Positions 1-40,725 of a stretch of 40,725 nucleotides of DNA are shown here, in pieces (the stretch's first letter is position 1; each line of letters opens with the position of its first letter). The notes beneath the pieces were generated by a model that ran no database searches, was not told the DNA's origin, and saw nothing but the letters and a program-made list of their open reading frames with translations. A program made the position numbers and the translations under genes. This stretch comes from a virus (taxonomy: Duplodnaviria > Caudoviricetes), in the IMG/VR virus record IMGVR_UViG_3300040985_002047, positions 1-40,725 of that record. One strand, 5' to 3'.

Positions 1-672
1 AGCTGCTACTTTAATATCATACGTACCAATCCTTGTTGCATCTGTAATTGTACTAAATCCACTTATAACAGAAGCAGAAGATCTTGTTTGAGCATCTGTT
101 TCAAGTCTAAATGTTGTTCTAACTGTATTTGCCGTATTCGCTGCTTGTGTGTTTTGTAAATAAATCAACTCAGCTTCTCCTGCTGTTGCTTGAGAAATAT
201 GAAGCTTCTTTGAAGGAGATGTTTCTCCTATTCCAAACCCTGTTGCATTCATATATAAAGTCTGACTGCCATTTATATCAACTGTAAATACTCCAGCATT
301 CCCAGGAGCTTTAAATTCTAAATTTGTATTATCTGCACTCCCAACTCTGAAATACCCAACTACCGCTGCAGCATCTCCTTCAATATCAATTCCTGCACCA
401 GTGGTTCCTGCAGTTGTTCCTCCTTCATTTATTAATATATTCTTATCTGCAACTGTTACAGTTGTAGAATTAATTGTTGTTGTCGTTCCACTTACTGTTA
501 AATTACCAGCAACAATCATATTATCAGAATCATCAATCGTACATCCTGAATTCTGAATCAAGTTTCCTGTCGCTCCATCCCATCTTACAATCGCATTATC
601 AGTTGTTGATCCACTTAAAAGTGAAACTCCTGCAGTTGAAGAACCCATTACCGAAGATAATTGTAAAGCCAT
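1..672 (-). CDS. Tail fibre protein, N-terminal part (continues across the circular join into 40625..39423; about 624 aa in total)
   Basis: ATG at 672 (MALQLSSVMG...), open to base 1 and in frame with the ORF ending at 39423; 'GNLTVSGTTTTINSTTVTVADKNI' and 'GFGIGETSPSKKLHI' are fibre-type repeats; missed by the ORF track. Confidence 0.85.
   Translation of the reverse strand, partial: MALQLSSVMGSSTAGVSLLSGSTTDNAIVRWDGATGNLIQNSGCTIDDSDNMIVAGNLTVSGTTTTINSTTVTVADKNILINEGGTTAGTTGAGIDIEGDAAAVVGYFRVGSADNTNLEFKAPGNAGVFTVDINGSQTLYMNATGFGIGETSPSKKLHISQATAGEAELIYLQNTQAANTANTVRTTFRLETDAQTRSSASVISGFSTITDATRIGTYDIKVAA
3..100. repeat. Terminal direct repeat (circular assembly overlap), copy 1
   Basis: 3-100 is identical to 40628-40725 (98 bp); position 2 (g) differs from 40627 (t). 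Confidence 0.97.
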
Positions 673-8498: not shown

Positions 8499-8819
8499 AT
8501 GTCAAAACGCTGCACACGTCTAGGTCACGACTTTAAAGACCAAAGAACTTCAGGTAATAGAATTATCGTTACCTGCATAGAATGCGGGTCTCGTAAGGAT
8601 TTCCACGTGGATGATAAACAATCTGCTCTTAAATTATTACGAAGATCTATCATACAACCCTCAGATAAAGAAAAATGGACAGAACTACACGGCTCCTCAT
8701 ACTACAAAGAAAAAGAAATCGAAGATGAAAGAAAAAGAAAAAGGGGAACCAAAGAAGAAATAAAAAAAGAAATGGTCGATATGGTTAAATCTGAAATGGA
8801 ACAAAAACTTATTATATAA
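8499..8819 (+). CDS. Hypothetical protein with putative Zn-binding motif
   Basis: C-x4-H...C-x2-C at the N-terminus; 106 aa. Confidence 0.7.
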   Translation: MSKRCTRLGHDFKDQRTSGNRIIVTCIECGSRKDFHVDDKQSALKLLRRSIIQPSDKEKWTELHGSSYYKEKEIEDERKRKRGTKEEIKKEMVDMVKSEMEQKLII

Positions 8820-8823
8820 AACA

Positions 8824-8861
8824 GGTCCAAATATGCACTGCTTTTTTGGACCCGCTTTTTT
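8824..8861 (+). terminator. Putative intrinsic terminator
   Basis: ggtccaaa...tttggacc inverted repeat followed by gctttttt just after the stop codon. Confidence 0.5.
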
Positions 8862-8879
8862 GGAACTAAATATATATAC

Positions 8880-8939
8880 ATCCCCACAACTATTCCTTAA
8901 AAAGAATTAAGTATATCCCCACAACTATTCCTTAAAAAG
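8880..8939. repeat. 25-bp direct repeat x2
   Basis: atccccacaactattccttaaaaag at 8880-8904 and 8915-8939. Confidence 0.95.
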
Positions 8940-9270
8940 TAAAGGGGGTTCCTTTTTTTAAAATCGGTGGGTGGGGGTATTATATAATATATATAAGACC
9001 CCGCCAGGGGTGCATGTACCCCCGTGGTCAGATGTATTTAATCCTCCACAATATGTATTGTGCATGATTAAACAGCTATAATCACACATCTCCGCTCTAT
9101 CACACACTATACAGGGGTTTAGATAATCCTACACGTGGTATACTGTGCATAGAATCACCTCTGTATACTAGCTCTATCACAGGCTATCCTATTTAAATGC
9201 GTTGTAAGCGACGCAATAACTCTCGAGGTAATAGTTGTCATGAAATTATACAGAAGCTCTTAGATCAAGA

Positions 9271-9735
9271 CTATAAATCCTCAAGGGGGCTTTCCTCGCT
9301 TAAAGAGTCAACTTCCACGCCTGCTGTTTTTAGATTATCCTTAGTCGCATAAGTTTTATCTATATAATTTGTTATATTCGTGATGTTTAATGTCTGTACT
9401 TTCTTCTCTTCTTCCGGATTCTTGTATAACTGAGCCATTTCTCCAAGATTTCGTAGGTTTTTGTCCTGGGAATTCTCAGATCGCTTGCTATCAGTGGCTC
9501 TGCGGGCGTGTAGCTTCTTGATCCAGCTAGCGGTAATGCCCTCGCCTTCAGTGATTGACATAATCTCATTTTGCATCTTAGCCTTTCTGAGCTGCCGTGC
9601 TCCTTCCACTGCTGCTGCGTTTTCCGAGCTATTTTTATAAACTTGTAATGCGCTTTTAGTTGCATTTCCTTCATTCTCAACATATGTTTTCGCAAACTCT
9701 TTTTGCTTCCACGTCAAACGAGTATCTTCTTTCAT
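9271..9735 (-). CDS. terS: Terminase small subunit
   Basis: 'LTWKQKEFAKTYVENEGNATKSALQVY...AAAVEGARQLRK' is the typical TerS N-terminal HTH. Confidence 0.9.
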   Translation of the reverse strand: MKEDTRLTWKQKEFAKTYVENEGNATKSALQVYKNSSENAAAVEGARQLRKAKMQNEIMSITEGEGITASWIKKLHARRATDSKRSENSQDKNLRNLGEMAQLYKNPEEEKKVQTLNITNITNYIDKTYATKDNLKTAGVEVDSLSEESPLEDL

Positions 9736-10429: not shown

Positions 10430-10735
10430 ATTAAAATAGCTTTCCCCACTTTGCCCGTATCAACCCAGTTAAAACCCAAACAAAATGGGACAGTTTGTTT
10501 TGTGTTAGTACTGCTATTATATTATAATATTATATATATATTACCCATATATATATAGTATATATTATCTCTCTCTCTCTCTTTTTTTTTTTAAATAAAT
10601 ATATATATACTAAGAAACACTGGGTTTTGGGTAAAGTCTAAGAAATCCGCAGTACTAAAGCATAATCTTCAACCCACTACCTCGGGCAAGAAGAGGGTTA
10701 AAGCATGAAAATCTAACAATTTCATGCTTTTTAGC
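10430..10735. other. Putative replication origin
   Basis: Non-coding; AT-rich low-complexity core ((TA)n, (CT)n, poly-T) flanked by AACCCA/TGGGTT-type repeats in both orientations; upstream of the replication genes. Confidence 0.6.
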
Positions 10736-10811
10736 TTTACTTTTATATATCTATAACTTATTATATATGTATAATCTGTACTATAAAATACTATATAATA
10801 TTACATTTATC

Positions 10812-11017: not shown

Positions 11018-12430
11018 ATGGATCTTCCTAAAAATATACAAGGGATTATTGACGGTTATTTGAAGCCTTCTAATCCGCACACGCCTGATGAATCTTTATT
11101 TCTAGCAGTCCTTTCTCAGATAAGTCAAATTATGTGTTTTAATAATATAAAAATAGTATCTAAAGAGCTTAATTACAATACAGCTCCTAATGTTTACATA
11201 TTAAATTTCATGGAAAGCGGAGAAGGAAAAGATAAACCAATAAAGAATATAAAAGATTGTCTTTTAGATTTTGAGGATCAGAAGAGACAGCTCTGTAATT
11301 TATATATGCAGAATAAGAGAGAGGAAAACACTTTGCATATTGAGCAGACAGAGATGAAATCAGCTGATGCTAGAGAGTACAGAAAAGCAAACGCTCCATT
11401 ATATCTAAGATACGAGGCAAGTGATGGAACAGTTGAAGGATTCTTAAAAGCTCGTGAGACGCTTAATGATGCTAACTTTGGTTCTTTGCATTTTGGTAAC
11501 TCTGAGTTTGTAGATTACATAGACACTAAAAGCGAATCAAGAAAGTACATGATGACCTATTTGATAGAAACATTTGATAATGGGAATTTCAGTCCTAAGA
11601 TTATTAAAGGCGATAACTTTGAAGAAAAGCGGTATTCTGTTCCTCAAACATTTTTTGCACATTCCAGTATAGAGTTCTTAATAGAGAATGAACTTGCGAA
11701 TAATACTCTTAATAGGTTTTTGCAGTCTGGGTTGGCTAGGCGTGCTATTATTTCGTATCCTGAAAAACAAGTAATGAAGAAAAGCACGAAAGAAGAAAGA
11801 TTAGAAAGAACGAAAAGTGCGATAGAAGGGAAGAAGCAAACGATTGATTACTTTAATCAATTCTTAGATAAAGTGGCTTTTTATAAGAAAGAATATCTTT
11901 ACGGCCTTGAGCCAGAGATAAAACTCGCAGGGCATAAAGAGATAACAATTCATCCAGATCTTGTAGATATAATAGAAGAATACAAAGAAGATATTAAATT
12001 ATCCTCAGAGAAAGAAACTATTACAGCGGTGAAGTTAGAGATGAAAAACCGGGAATGGCGGACAATAAAGCTAGCTGGTTGTATAACAGCTTTTACTTCT
12101 AGCGGATTTGAGATACAGAAACAGCATTGGGAAGAAGCTTTAAGAATAACAGAGTATTTTGCTAAACAGTTCAAGAGATTCTTTGTAGAAAAGATCAACA
12201 ACAGTATGAGTGATGAAAAGGTTTACGATTACATAAAGAGTAATCCAGGATGTACTAAGACAGATTTAAGAAGAAATGCGGTACAAAGGAAGAACCGTGA
12301 TAACTTACAATTCTTTGAAGCTTTAATATCAAACACTAGCCAGAGGTGTGCTGATAATGAAGAAGAATTAAGGATTGAGCAAATTACGAATAAGACACTT
12401 TATTTTATAATCTCCAAGCAAGATGATTAA
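11018..12430 (+). CDS. DUF3987-like P-loop ATPase (primase-associated helicase type)
   Basis: 'PNVYILNFMESGEGKD' Walker A, 'SDGTVEG', 'SGLARR', C-terminal winged-helix-like segment. Confidence 0.75.
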   Translation: MDLPKNIQGIIDGYLKPSNPHTPDESLFLAVLSQISQIMCFNNIKIVSKELNYNTAPNVYILNFMESGEGKDKPIKNIKDCLLDFEDQKRQLCNLYMQNKREENTLHIEQTEMKSADAREYRKANAPLYLRYEASDGTVEGFLKARETLNDANFGSLHFGNSEFVDYIDTKSESRKYMMTYLIETFDNGNFSPKIIKGDNFEEKRYSVPQTFFAHSSIEFLIENELANNTLNRFLQSGLARRAIISYPEKQVMKKSTKEERLERTKSAIEGKKQTIDYFNQFLDKVAFYKKEYLYGLEPEIKLAGHKEITIHPDLVDIIEEYKEDIKLSSEKETITAVKLEMKNREWRTIKLAGCITAFTSSGFEIQKQHWEEALRITEYFAKQFKRFFVEKINNSMSDEKVYDYIKSNPGCTKTDLRRNAVQRKNRDNLQFFEALISNTSQRCADNEEELRIEQITNKTLYFIISKQDD

Positions 12431-12947
12431 TAAAATCAAATCTCGCAGCATCATTGATATTGAAGACATAATCCCAGAACAAATAGCGGATGTATTTAAT
12501 CAAGAAAAGAATTTCAATCGGTACGTATCACAGATAGAACAGAAACGTAAGAAGTTCACCCAGTATAATATGATACAAGCTTTTAAAGGACCTGATTTAG
12601 TGAATCATTGTTATGAAATGATGAAATCTAGACGTCATAAGCCTATATATGAAAACATATTAAACATGTTACGAACTGATAACTCAAATATCTTCACTGA
12701 ACAAATCCAGAAAGCCAAAGCTGTTCCTTTATCAGAGATTTTCAGTAATCATGGTTTAATAGAAACAAAGAAGTGGTATGTATGCCCATTCCATGATGAT
12801 ACAAAACCATCAATGACAATCCAGAGATCTAAAGCAGGATACGAATACTTTAAGTGCTATGTATGTCAGGAATGGGGGTCAGGAATAGATTTTATAATGA
12901 AGAATAATTGTGTTTCTTTTAAAGAAGCTGTAAGGATTCTTAGTTAA
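12423..12947 (+). CDS. CHC2 zinc-finger protein (primase zinc-binding domain, no TOPRIM domain)
   Basis: 'CPFHDDTKPS...FKCYVC...GIDFIM...SFKEAVRIL'. Confidence 0.88.
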   Translation: MINKIKSRSIIDIEDIIPEQIADVFNQEKNFNRYVSQIEQKRKKFTQYNMIQAFKGPDLVNHCYEMMKSRRHKPIYENILNMLRTDNSNIFTEQIQKAKAVPLSEIFSNHGLIETKKWYVCPFHDDTKPSMTIQRSKAGYEYFKCYVCQEWGSGIDFIMKNNCVSFKEAVRILS

Positions 12948-16609: not shown

Positions 16610-16737
16610 GAATACTTGTAAGGGATGTCGAATACCGAATACTACAAATGAAATATATTGTAGTTCTTACTGTGAGAAATGGGATAATATAGATTATGAC
16701 CTAAGTCGTTGAGCGAAGCGAAAGACTGTTGATACTC

Positions 16738-18711: not shown

Positions 18712-18948
18712 ATGAACATGTCACTAGGTCAGATTTTAAATTGTACAGAAGACAAGAAAATGGATGAAAGAATGAAACCTATATTCATGTTTCTTGATAC
18801 AATAAAGAGAAAACACGTCAAAAGAACTATGTTAATAACTCACGTATATCATAACAAGGAAAAGATAGAGTTCGCTTTCACTCCACCAGAAAAAGCAAAG
18901 GATACTGAGATAGGGGTTAAATGCATAGATATAAAAAGAATAGTTTAG
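18712..18948 (+). CDS. Hypothetical early protein
   Basis: 78 aa; conserved ATCAATTAA leader. Confidence 0.65.
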   Translation: MNMSLGQILNCTEDKKMDERMKPIFMFLDTIKRKHVKRTMLITHVYHNKEKIEFAFTPPEKAKDTEIGVKCIDIKRIV

Positions 18949-19180
18949 GAGCCTTTCGCTTAACAGCTCAACGGCTAGTTGTATACACCCCCTCGCTCGA
19001 TTTTTCTTAACCTTATCAAGCAATTTTTCCCTCTGTTGTTTTTGTAGTTCAACGCCTCGTGTGATAGGGCTTGATGGGGAGAGTACAGTTTCGAGCGAGT
19101 TAAATGATGTATAAGCTGTACTTATTTTTGTTTTCCTATCACACGAGTGAGGGAGTGTATACAACAAGTCCTAAACAATT
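18939..19180 (+). ncRNA. Candidate multi-pseudoknotted structured RNA/ssDNA element
   Basis: Six complementary segment pairs of 8-17 bp in an intergenic gap; most wobble pairs are G-U on the + strand. Confidence 0.7.
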
Positions 19181-19200
19181 ATCAATTAACAAATAATATT

Positions 19201-19653
19201 ATGAGACAATTTATGTTTAGAATCTGGTTGATAAAAACAGAAGAAATGATTCGGGAACCTGTTTTTGCATACAATAAATGGTTTCGAAGTCCTGAGTATT
19301 TAGAAAAGTACGATATGTGCTTAAATGAAACCGAAGGAGGCAAGTATGAAGTCATGCAATACACAGGACTCAAAGACAAGGATGACAAGGAAATATATGA
19401 AGGAGATATAGTAAAAGAAGATAATGAATACCTACACTGTGACGGAGGAGGATGTGATTGTGGGAATCCTGATAGATGTAAAGAACTTGATGAAAAAGGA
19501 GAGACTTATAAAGTTCTATGGAATGGCTATTTTGGTGGATATTTTTTATCTAATACCTTAGGAGGTAAATTATTAAAAGGGAAAGACAAAGTTTCTTGTA
19601 TGGCAATCATAGGAAACATACATGAAAATTCAGAATTATTATCAATTAACTAA
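19201..19653 (+). CDS. YopX family protein
   Basis: 'FMFRIW...MQYTGLKDKDDKEIYEGDIV...IIGNIHENSELL'; start revised to 19201. Confidence 0.92.
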   Translation: MRQFMFRIWLIKTEEMIREPVFAYNKWFRSPEYLEKYDMCLNETEGGKYEVMQYTGLKDKDDKEIYEGDIVKEDNEYLHCDGGGCDCGNPDRCKELDEKGETYKVLWNGYFGGYFLSNTLGGKLLKGKDKVSCMAIIGNIHENSELLSIN

Positions 19654-22364: not shown

Positions 22365-22505
22365 TTAATTGATACGAACCTTGTATTCTCCTGTGGTCTT
22401 TCTGTTATCCCATACAACAGTATTCTGCATATCGTACAACATAGTCCAGAGAAACAATACAAATAAAATAACTCCTATAATAGAAAGCATTACTTTGTTC
22501 TTCAT
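22365..22505 (-). CDS. Single-TM lysis-module protein (46 aa)
   Basis: MKNKVMLSIIGVILFVLFLWTML...; fills the endolysin-holin gap. Confidence 0.6.
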   Translation of the reverse strand: MKNKVMLSIIGVILFVLFLWTMLYDMQNTVVWDNRKTTGEYKVRIN

Positions 22506-23129: not shown

Positions 23130-23241
23130 GTGTGAGCAGTAAGCCATTTAACTGTAGAGAACTTTATTCTCTACCTGTGCGAGATTAGCGCTAGAAAGTG
23201 TGAGCAGTAAGCCATTTAACTGTAGAGAACTTTATTCTCTA
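23130..23241. repeat. 44-bp direct repeat x2 (period 68)
   Basis: gtgtgagcagtaagccatttaactgtagagaactttattctcta at 23130-23173 and 23198-23241. Confidence 0.95.
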
Positions 23242-39422: not shown

Positions 39423-40725
39423 TTAAACTCTATAAAATCCAAAGGCACGCATGCTCCATGTATTATTTGTTAAATCAGTCCCGACATATAAAGCCCCAGT
39501 TCCTGGAACATAACCAAATATTTGGTCTGAAGAATTAGGGATTGTAAAACTTGGGACACATGAATTAACAAGACCAACATCATTGCTTTGAACTAAAGTC
39601 ATTCCTTCTCCCTGATTATCTCCAGATGCTGTAAATGGAAGTCCTCCAAATTTTAACTGAGATCCATTAAGAGTCCCTCCAGTTGTTTCTATAAACATAG
39701 TTACATAAACAGTGTTCCCAACCTTTGTATAATGACCAAACTGAGAAGCATATGTTGGAGAAGTTACTCCAGAATCAACCGTTGGCGTCCATGTTCCTTC
39801 TTCGTAATCATCTAATACATTAACATCCGCCGATCCAAGATTATCAAGTTTTATTCCAACTGAAGGAATAACTACTCCAGTATTATCTATAGTCAATCTT
39901 GTAGCCGACGCATCTGCATCTGAAATAATAAAAGCATCTGTGCCACCATCATTAAATAAACGCCACTTATTAGTCCCTGCTTCTGCGAAGTAAAGAGAAG
40001 AACTGTTCCCAGCAGAATCTGTATCAACTGTAATAGCTCCTCCTGCTGATTTAACATGAAGATCTGTAGCTGGAGTGTTTATACCTATTCCAACTGTTCC
40101 ATCACTTTGGATAATTAATCCTGTAACAGCATCTGTCGTATTATAAAATTGAAGCTTCCCAGTACCTGCCCCCGCCCCTGTACCTGTAGATAAAATCTGC
40201 CATTCTTTCCCTGCTGCAGAAGAGTTTCTTAACTGTAATGACGCTTCTGATCCCGAGCTATCCAGGATTACTCCTTGGGTGTTATTCGCCGCACCAAGAT
40301 TAACGTGTAATTTATTCGTAGGAGCATCCGTCGATATTCCTACATTTCCTGAAGAATCAATAGTTAATCTTGTTGTATCTTCCACTGTCGCACCTTCACT
40401 AATCTTAAACTTATCTGCATCACTATTATCAATTCCCATTGTCCAGTTCTGCCCAGCTGTTAATAAAAAGTTTATTGCTGCATCTCCGGTCCCGTCTTGC
40501 TCTACAGAGAATTGAGGAGTTGTACTGGTGGTATTCTCGTATAAATTCAAAAAAGTTGAAGGAGTTATTGTCCCTATTCCTACATTACTTCCCCTGATGC
40601 TTAATCTTTCAGAAAAATCAGAACCATCTGCTACTTTAATATCATACGTACCAATCCTTGTTGCATCTGTAATTGTACTAAATCCACTTATAACAGAAGC
40701 AGAAGATCTTGTTTGAGCATCTGTT
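39423..40725 (-). CDS. Tail fibre protein, C-terminal part
   Basis: Open frame from the window end; 'GNVGI.T..P...LHV' repeats; C-terminal 'LDDYEEGTWTP...GHYTKVGNTV...GLPF'. Confidence 0.88.
   Translation of the reverse strand, partial: TDAQTRSSASVISGFSTITDATRIGTYDIKVADGSDFSERLSIRGSNVGIGTITPSTFLNLYENTTSTTPQFSVEQDGTGDAAINFLLTAGQNWTMGIDNSDADKFKISEGATVEDTTRLTIDSSGNVGISTDAPTNKLHVNLGAANNTQGVILDSSGSEASLQLRNSSAAGKEWQILSTGTGAGAGTGKLQFYNTTDAVTGLIIQSDGTVGIGINTPATDLHVKSAGGAITVDTDSAGNSSSLYFAEAGTNKWRLFNDGGTDAFIISDADASATRLTIDNTGVVIPSVGIKLDNLGSADVNVLDDYEEGTWTPTVDSGVTSPTYASQFGHYTKVGNTVYVTMFIETTGGTLNGSQLKFGGLPFTASGDNQGEGMTLVQSNDVGLVNSCVPSFTIPNSSDQIFGYVPGTGALYVGTDLTNNTWSMRAFGFYRV
40628..40725. repeat. Terminal direct repeat, copy 2
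   Basis: Identical to 3-100. Confidence 0.97.

Follow-up and report, generated by a model that had tools for sequence, protein, structure and literature searches.

The window analysed here, the whole stretch of 40,725 nucleotides of IMG/VR record IMGVR_UViG_3300040985_002047, is a whole virus genome. About 100 bases are repeated at its two ends (window 1-100 and 40626-40725), and the repeated ends indicate that the genome is circularly assembled and complete. Comparison with PHROGs and Pfam identified genes for terminases, portal, capsid, primase, a RecU-like resolvase, endolysin and tail, with both the small and the large terminase matched in PHROGs. No tRNA or tmRNA gene was found in the genome. 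Gene leaders are AT-rich and without Shine-Dalgarno sites, and TAA ends 40 of the 48 ORFs. The genome was detected in 18 sequencing runs, all of DNA and all from seawater or marine samples, and five of them contained at least half of the sampled words. The host is likely a member of Patescibacteria, because TGA encodes glycine, at conserved glycine positions, in L234, a relative with 61% capsid identity (translation table 25; L234:1-21080), and among named capsid matches a TM7 phage ranks best (29%). The use of TGA for glycine in table 25 is the code of Gracilibacteria and Absconditabacteria. The window and another relative, L233 (capsid identity 70%), use table 11, and the capsid clade of these three viruses seems to span hosts of both genetic codes.

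The element of interest sits within a run of small genes on the + strand, with an orphan gene for 78 amino acids on one side and a YopX-family gene on the other. It had been described in the original prediction as filling a gene-sized slot between a stop codon and the next conserved leader, and this is what we found: the TAG stop of the upstream gene falls inside the outermost helix, and the TATCAATTAA leader stands at 19180. The features of the locus are as follows.

18712-18948, + strand: upstream early ORF of 78 amino acids; its TAG stop (18946-18948) lies inside helix O
18943-19176, + strand: the whole element, 234 nt, a predicted structured non-coding RNA
18943-18950, + strand: 5' strand of O, the outer closing stem; pairs with 19169-19176 (8 of 8)
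18950-18976, + strand: hp1, a small hairpin between O and A (18950-18953 with 18973-18976 and 18958-18960 with 18965-18967, UAAC loop), present in the MFE and centroid structures
18978-18994, + strand: 5' strand of A; pairs with 19149-19165 (16 of 17), the outer 11 bp perfect; contains an 8-nt palindrome
18992-19000, + strand: 5' strand of B, a crossing helix; pairs with 19091-19099 (9 of 9)
19001-19010, + strand: linker alpha, 10 nt, starting with U5; crosses E (10 bp plus A19080)
19011-19021, + strand: 5' strand of C, a crossing helix; pairs with 19069-19079 (11 bp, two G-U)
19022-19033, + strand: linker gamma, 12 nt, U/C-rich with a U5; crosses D (13 bp)
19034-19054, + strand: H, a hairpin of 5 bp (19034-19038 with 19050-19054) with an 11-nt U-rich loop, adjoining the start of D
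19056-19099, + strand: central strand D-C'-A-E-B' (13+11+1+10+9 = 44 nt, four A-form turns), whose partners alternate between downstream and upstream
19100-19113, + strand: loop L3, 14 nt, A-rich; crosses B
19114-19123, + strand: E'; pairs with 19081-19090 (10 bp, two G-U)
19124-19134, + strand: linker beta, 11 nt, starting with A-U5; crosses C (11 bp)
19135-19147, + strand: D'; pairs with 19056-19068 (13 of 13)
19149-19165, + strand: A'; its inner 6 nt are common to A and a rival helix, G
19169-19176, + strand: O'; pairs with O
19179-19200, + strand: AT-rich leader, repeated ahead of other early genes and unpaired in the predicted fold
19201-19653, + strand: downstream gene of the YopX family (PF09643, E 1.5e-16)

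All six helices that had been proposed, O and A to E, were reproduced with the pairing listed above, the one mismatch in A being a C.A at 18989/19154. The central strand is paired over its whole length save for A19080, and the two linkers that had been said to bridge helices, alpha and beta, have the lengths given for them, 10 and 11 nt. To this picture we add hp1, H, the rival helix G and an extension of A into the 5' strand of B. When H is formed, the long loop after C is reduced to a linker of 12-13 nt across D, and the linkers of 10, 11 and 12-13 nt match the crossed helices of 10-11, 11 and 13 bp. Each of three A-U5 runs comes directly after a helix end, and the 86 unpaired bases include 42 U and 8 G, as expected for spacers that are kept from pairing. 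The U5 tracts do not lie opposite homopurine strands, and regular U.A-U triples are not evident. The inner junctions of the central strand are about 11 nt apart, a spacing that would place the bends in one plane.

The pairing exceeds what shuffled sequences produce. The MFE of the element has a z-score of -6.1, and none of 200 shuffles folded as low. In the pseudoknot-aware comparison with dinucleotide shuffles, the best compatible helix set reached -127.8 kcal/mol of stacking energy, beyond the minimum of -112.8 among 1000 shuffles. With O, A, D and E held fixed and the rest shuffled, one helix of the strength of B appeared in 13 of 2000 trials and two as strong as B and C in none of the 2000; B and C at their own positions never appeared when all free bases were shuffled (0/5000) or when the 5' region alone was (0/5000). 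Thus, the long hairpin does not yield B and C as by-products by chance. The number of crossings is ordinary (5 against a shuffle mean of 4.4), and the energy of the crossing helices (-97.1) was beaten by at least one of 1000 shuffles (minimum -103.6). We also scanned 282 partly redundant, overlapping sequences for four tiled alternating helices, irrespective of sequence, with a pattern taken from the element itself (helices of at least 8 bp, linkers of 4-18 nt): below 45% GC, this site was the only one in 1.51 Mb of strand-bases, and the GC-richer DNA (1.30 Mb) had one. Looser limits gave 6 and 21 sites, respectively. Two matches of the relaxed scan, L207 (843-1262) and L252 (7742-8204), were rejected as low-complexity sequence rich in short palindromes and conserved in related marine phages. 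A structure at the level of RNA is highly probable, and the chance that all four core helices are formed together appears slightly better than even.

The original prediction had not recognised a known family, and neither do the covariance models of Rfam 15, which include ROOL, GOLLD, ARRPOF, raiA, ribozymes, tmRNA, RNase P and 6S: no match in the window passed the gathering threshold. When the cutoff was relaxed to E of 10 for 18800-19300, three chance-level matches appeared (E 0.47-2.1), all far below gathering and none of them a ribozyme. A natural RNA of the four-helix tiled layout was not found in the literature searched, which consisted largely of papers outside subscription journals. In a survey of structured viral RNAs (PMC10690425), short motifs of the element were unmatched in the four supplementary files searched.

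Homologues were sought in several ways. Contigs from four runs were compared; those of three cover the whole element with no difference, and the fourth covers it up to 19081, though these runs may belong to one campaign. The element is not an assembly artefact, because contigs of three other runs contain it unchanged. Blastn against INPHARED phages gave only six chance matches of 25-30 nt to the element, and for the wider region the matches listed (15 of 134 records) concerned YopX only. There was no match to the element among plasmids. Pattern scans of IMG/VR yielded 16, 119, 36, 2 and 23 loci, the second of these from 24 of 64 parts, and nhmmer E-values among them were never below 0.4; one pattern scan of GTDB genomes gave no match. 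A DNA search of 20 virus records related by capsid or terminase found the element in none, and the genome itself holds no second copy. The clade with capsids 45-70% identical comprises 15 proteins, several of them on contigs of 30-42 kb. A search by capsid alignment returned 54 viral loci at 38% identity or less over the full length, five metagenome loci and none in GTDB, a search by terminase returned four loci at 26-27%, and a search for the primase locus returned none, though a primase protein with 80% identity exists. For L233 and L234, the sequence covered reached 10 kb from the capsid gene and ended short of the early array. Since no homologue was found, covariation is available for none of the helices, and we counted this against the explanation preferred below. 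The structured element is real, non-random and unfamiliar in layout, and it is known from one sequence.

The upstream ORF of 78 amino acids has no PHROG or Pfam family, and besides its own copy it had only two weak matches among 1.84 billion representatives; its Atlas scores reached 0.80 at most. The 10-mer TATCAATTAA has five exact copies in the genome, at 10229, 18690, 19180 and 19640 on the + strand and at 22365 on the minus strand, and four of them stand shortly before a start codon. A search for promoter-like sites inside the element and immediately upstream gave none, and likewise no terminator was found within or behind it. Because it has neither of its own, the element is probably part of a + strand early transcript. 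An ORF of 30 codons inside the element (19104-19196) and another of 111 codons on the minus strand were set aside, both being without a leader of the usual kind. No partner protein was evident among the neighbour genes in the comparisons with PHROGs, Pfam, representative proteins and the Atlas. The four G-U pairs on the + strand against one on the minus strand had been taken to favour a + strand RNA. That count is correct but says little about the strand (6/32 = 0.19 for a coin-toss null), and the nested fold of the minus strand is just as strong (z -7.2). A better argument for the + strand comes from the + strand neighbours and from the mismatches on the minus strand, where C and E have two each.

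Nested folding of growing transcripts predicts that C and then B form first, with pair probabilities of 0.89-1.0 in every prefix holding them up to 19135. From the prefix ending at 19147, their probability is 0.0, and D and E take their place. This swap arises because the nested model cannot hold both helix sets; such energy models cannot score pseudoknots, and the loss of B and C at 19147 counts against the interlocked fold without deciding whether they coexist with D and E. In the B/C state, E and D are single-stranded, so that E' and D' can be added without displacement. Some helices do compete. A can extend to 18999/19144 for a total of 22 bp, at the cost of B plus the distal 4 bp of D. 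As it extends, a helix of 4 bp (19056-19059/19092-19095) forms where A, B and D meet, in exact four-way register (pair sums 38143+38151 = 38091+38203), and this meeting point is a register-perfect mobile junction located at the ring closure. The rival helix G joins 19028-19033, the 3' half of gamma, to 19149-19154 and is perfect where A has its mismatch. G and the extended A compete with A and B, and for G to form together with C, the G/H/D junction must fold back (6 nt, at most 45 Å, against 56 Å when coaxial). The leader of the next gene is free of every predicted helix.

The original prediction had stated that the fold must close into a ring or multimerise if all helices form, and we agree, because the B and D ends of the stack are both attached to A with a slack of 0-1 nt. 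It had also raised a topological knot. We modelled this with coarse coaxial A-form geometry and Alexander polynomials, taking 16 routings of the four displaced strands, each in a groove or straight outside; the model is purely geometric and ignores junction sterics and the bend imposed by A. Seven routings gave unknots, six gave trefoils (3_1), two gave 5_2 and one gave 5_1, identically for four sets of helix lengths, and 5_1 is the result when all linkers are straight. The routes in the grooves need 40 of 66-71 Å, 47 of 84-91 Å and 60 of 90-97 Å available, and the linker across C, by the minor groove, needs 76 Å of an available 72-78 Å and fits narrowly. A knot is therefore possible, nine routings being knotted, but it is not implied, since the other seven are unknotted and no linker is too short for the groove route. 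In this model, an unknotted braid would need no threading and would suit a tethered nascent RNA. A knot forced by G together with C and D was considered and rejected; unknotted routings remain.

The reading that we prefer, with a probability of about 0.35, is a self-contained gene for a phage non-coding RNA that is transcribed early and folds into four interlocked helices, serving in trans as a stable, nuclease-resistant decoy or scaffold. Should all four core helices be formed together, the odds would lean towards such a decoy or scaffold. A released, trans-acting RNA is suggested by the closing stems of its own, the long A stalk and the place among small early genes. The + strand early transcript would contain the element, and on it C and then B are predicted to form before E' and D' join the free E and D. 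The displaced strands may then follow the grooves, with alpha and gamma crossing E and D and with L3 and beta crossing B and C, as an unknotted braid in the modelled geometry; a division of crossing strands between the major and minor grooves is usual in H-type pseudoknots. A would draw the ends of the 44-nt stack into a ring or a U, where the mobile junction could relieve strain, or the A of one molecule may pair with the A' of a second to give dimers instead. The last step is the weakest: an RNase III-like enzyme might cut the long A/O stalk, or the sequence next to it, and so free a stable RNA that might bind or titrate a host RNA-binding or defence protein, for instance via the U5 tracts. 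A long stalk is typical of RNase III processing, as in T7 early RNA and rRNA.

The exact swap in the nested models, with B and C near 1.0 to prefix 19135 and 0.0 from 19147, can also be read as a folding-order switch, in which B and C are transient, giving way to a nested rod O-A(-G-H)-D-E, and the lag sets the moment of an event such as RNase III cleavage or early mRNA decay. The extension of A over the 5' strand of B, the capture of the inner A' strand by G and the mobile junction of A, B and D are consistent with such a switch. On the other hand, switch helices normally have a strand in common, whereas B/C and D/E occupy different nucleotides. Moreover, the switch would have no visible output, with no terminator in or after the element and a leader outside all helices that leaves no start site to control, and the matching of linker lengths to the crossed helices makes sense only with both sets formed. 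We regard it as unlikely, if still a serious competitor of the interlocked RNA acting in trans.

The interlocked fold might instead act in cis, as a roadblock to exonucleases within the polycistronic early mRNA, where it would determine how stable the message is for the genes on one side; the knot-like xrRNAs of flaviviruses stall exonucleases. The place within a run of + strand genes without promoter or terminator, the span from the upstream stop to just before the leader and the very high predicted stability would all suit this role. However, a simple hairpin would suffice for it, both ends of the element run into the plain duplex O and not into a threaded ring, and the genome has a single such element, so we hold this role in cis to be distinctly improbable.

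A true knot (3_1, 5_2 or 5_1) would need linkers that run straight outside the helices and ends that thread while the processed RNA refolds, after which A and O would lock it. In its favour are the nine knotted routings among 16, with 5_1 when all are straight, and the resemblance of helices of 9-13 bp with U-rich spacers to synthetic designs (PMC4829277; cf. PMC13725558). The review PMC4829277 gives about 10 bp or more per helix as the design criterion and describes U-rich spacers in synthetic designs; the interleaved helices here, in the knot-competent X-Y-X'-Y' order, have 13, 11, 10 and 9 bp. A DNA design with 12-bp helices and poly-T is described as knotting on slow cooling (PMC13725558). 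The review PMC4829277 refers to a survey of more than 7,000 chains that reported no knot, and the knot candidates that it gives have two helices. Against a knot, unknotted routes exist here and are sterically allowed, and the nascent RNA is tethered at both ends. RydC is a small Hfq sRNA with a single pseudoknot. It is also the one reported natural RNA trefoil, a pseudoknotted bacterial RNA whose backbone is knotted in the solved structure (cited in PMC11218946), and one natural RNA knot, a trefoil, is all that is on record in the accounts given (PMC13725558, PMC11218946). The element differs from RydC in having no Rfam match, and if knotted, it would give deeper knots. That it is knotted seems to us very unlikely.

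The internal repeats invite a further reading, in which the element belongs to the DNA level or is a relic, such as an old inverted duplication, a miniature mobile element or a pair of operators, and B and C are by-products of the repeats. A 12-nt inverted repeat stands at the termini, the 8-nt palindrome occurs twice, and there are five two-copy families of 8-19 nt and no array. C and D' have a motif in common, likewise C' and D, with flanks that differ so that each helix still pairs. The resemblance hints that C and D may be diverged paralogues, from a duplication and then selection on both. The element also folds as single-stranded DNA (z -5.0), and there is no strong strand bias. These points are opposed by its single copy in the genome, by the halves that differ yet keep each helix paired, by the significance of B and C in the shuffle of the 5' region alone and by the U-rich, G-poor unpaired positions, and we would put little weight on a DNA-level or relic origin. 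A ribozyme of a new kind, self-cleaving or self-circularising, would fit the helix order D-C'-E-E'-D' and a 9-nt motif (repeat family D2) repeated just ahead of A and of D, but it is the least likely, given that Rfam models of ribozymes and introns remain unmatched up to E of 10, that 34 nt stand where a P4-P6 is needed, that no gene is interrupted and that the helices exceed catalytic cores in length and regularity.

Several known classes were rejected. Group I introns have the helix order P7-P3'-P8-P7', and the order of the element fits their P3/P7 arrangement, but this order is generic; no model matched, 34 nt lie between C and D at the site of P4-P6, and the flanking genes have a stop or leader of their own. 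A retron msr-msd or another RNA of a defence reverse transcriptase was rejected on finding no reverse transcriptase family in 48 ORFs (PHROGs) or 37 (Pfam), among which many ORFs are without any family. A type III antitoxin or pseudo-ToxI lacks support because there are no tandem pseudoknot repeats. A phi29-type prohead RNA has no Rfam match here; such RNAs belong to phages with no small terminase in their motor, and this genome has matches to a small and a large terminase. A miniature inverted-repeat mobile element would agree with the 12-nt terminal repeat, but the several copies usual for such elements are missing, since this one occurs once in the genome and was not found elsewhere.

The interlocked RNA can also be set beside structures that it resembles. 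C/D and B/E each have the order of an H-type pseudoknot without a central loop, with U/C-rich loops after the first stem and an A-rich L3, and a U/C-rich loop after the first stem with an A-rich later loop is the usual pattern of H-type pseudoknots. It departs from them in that two are interlocked on a common strand, with stems of 9-13 bp, and are closed by A and O. A precedent for a decoy role is found in phage pseudo-ToxI RNAs, pseudoknot decoys made of tandem short-pseudoknot repeats that act in trans on a host defence protein of the type III toxin-antitoxin kind; the element differs in its two-copy repeats of 8-19 nt, which form no tandem array.

Nearest in kind are the ornate RNAs ROOL, GOLLD, ARRPOF and the raiA motif, which are described as large, abundant non-coding RNAs with several pseudoknots and no established function (PMC12286853, PMC12990946). 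According to the same reports, ROOL and GOLLD are phage-borne and form multimers, and ARRPOF, of a size similar to the element, has 255 nt, four pseudoknots and a domain-swapped dimer. ROOL and GOLLD exceed about 500 nt and are often described beside tRNA arrays, whereas the element has 234 nt in a genome without tRNA or tmRNA. Moreover, its pseudoknot helices are full turns tiled on one strand, in contrast to the short kissing pairs described for the ornate RNAs. Synthetic X-Y-X'-Y' knots of the Seeman design, as they are presented in PMC4829277, PMC13725558, PMC13505510 and PMC11218946, are alike in their interleaved helices of about one turn and U/T-rich spacers. Unlike them, the element is natural, has four helices rather than two, a central strand without spacers and closing stems of its own, and has an unknotted route available.

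The natural use of knotted RNA is stated as an open question in the review PMC4829277. With four helices of 9-13 bp on one strand, the element is short enough for in vitro transcription, and the knot question becomes directly testable. There is a small chance that it is a natural RNA like a designed knot, with four one-turn helices tiled on a 44-nt strand, which folds knotted after release from the early transcript. If so, it would be a deep trefoil or a five-crossing knot that exonucleases could not unwind, and the first of a new class of phage RNAs protected by their topology. Without a knot, a ring made of four staggered pseudoknot helices, each of one turn, would still be a fold that is in no Rfam family and was not met in the literature searched. 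It would likewise count as a rare example of a structured RNA in a phage clade whose hosts are likely Patescibacteria.

Other regions of the genome also drew attention. At 11018-12947, a primase-like gene is followed by a separate CHC2 zinc-finger gene; the counterpart of this pair in L233 is one ORF of 760 amino acids (25% identity over the first part), and the window may have the split form. The intergenic segment 13330-13470, after a sigma-70-like promoter, has nested inverted repeats and a GC-rich hairpin and may be a second structured RNA or a leader, and a hairpin motif related to it lies near 16710. Upstream of a Rha-like regulator gene, a sequence of about 45 bases is directly repeated (two copies) at 23130-23240, together with several GTGAGTCAC-like motifs, and the segment is a possible operator region or origin. 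The non-coding segments 8815-9275 and 10480-10770, beside the small terminase, have a 20-nt direct repeat, G/C runs and long TA/TC tracts and are likely a packaging or replication origin. Finally, two unrelated virus records, L275 and L276, have near-perfect long inverted repeats with predicted energies of -141 and -129 kcal/mol over about 250 nt.
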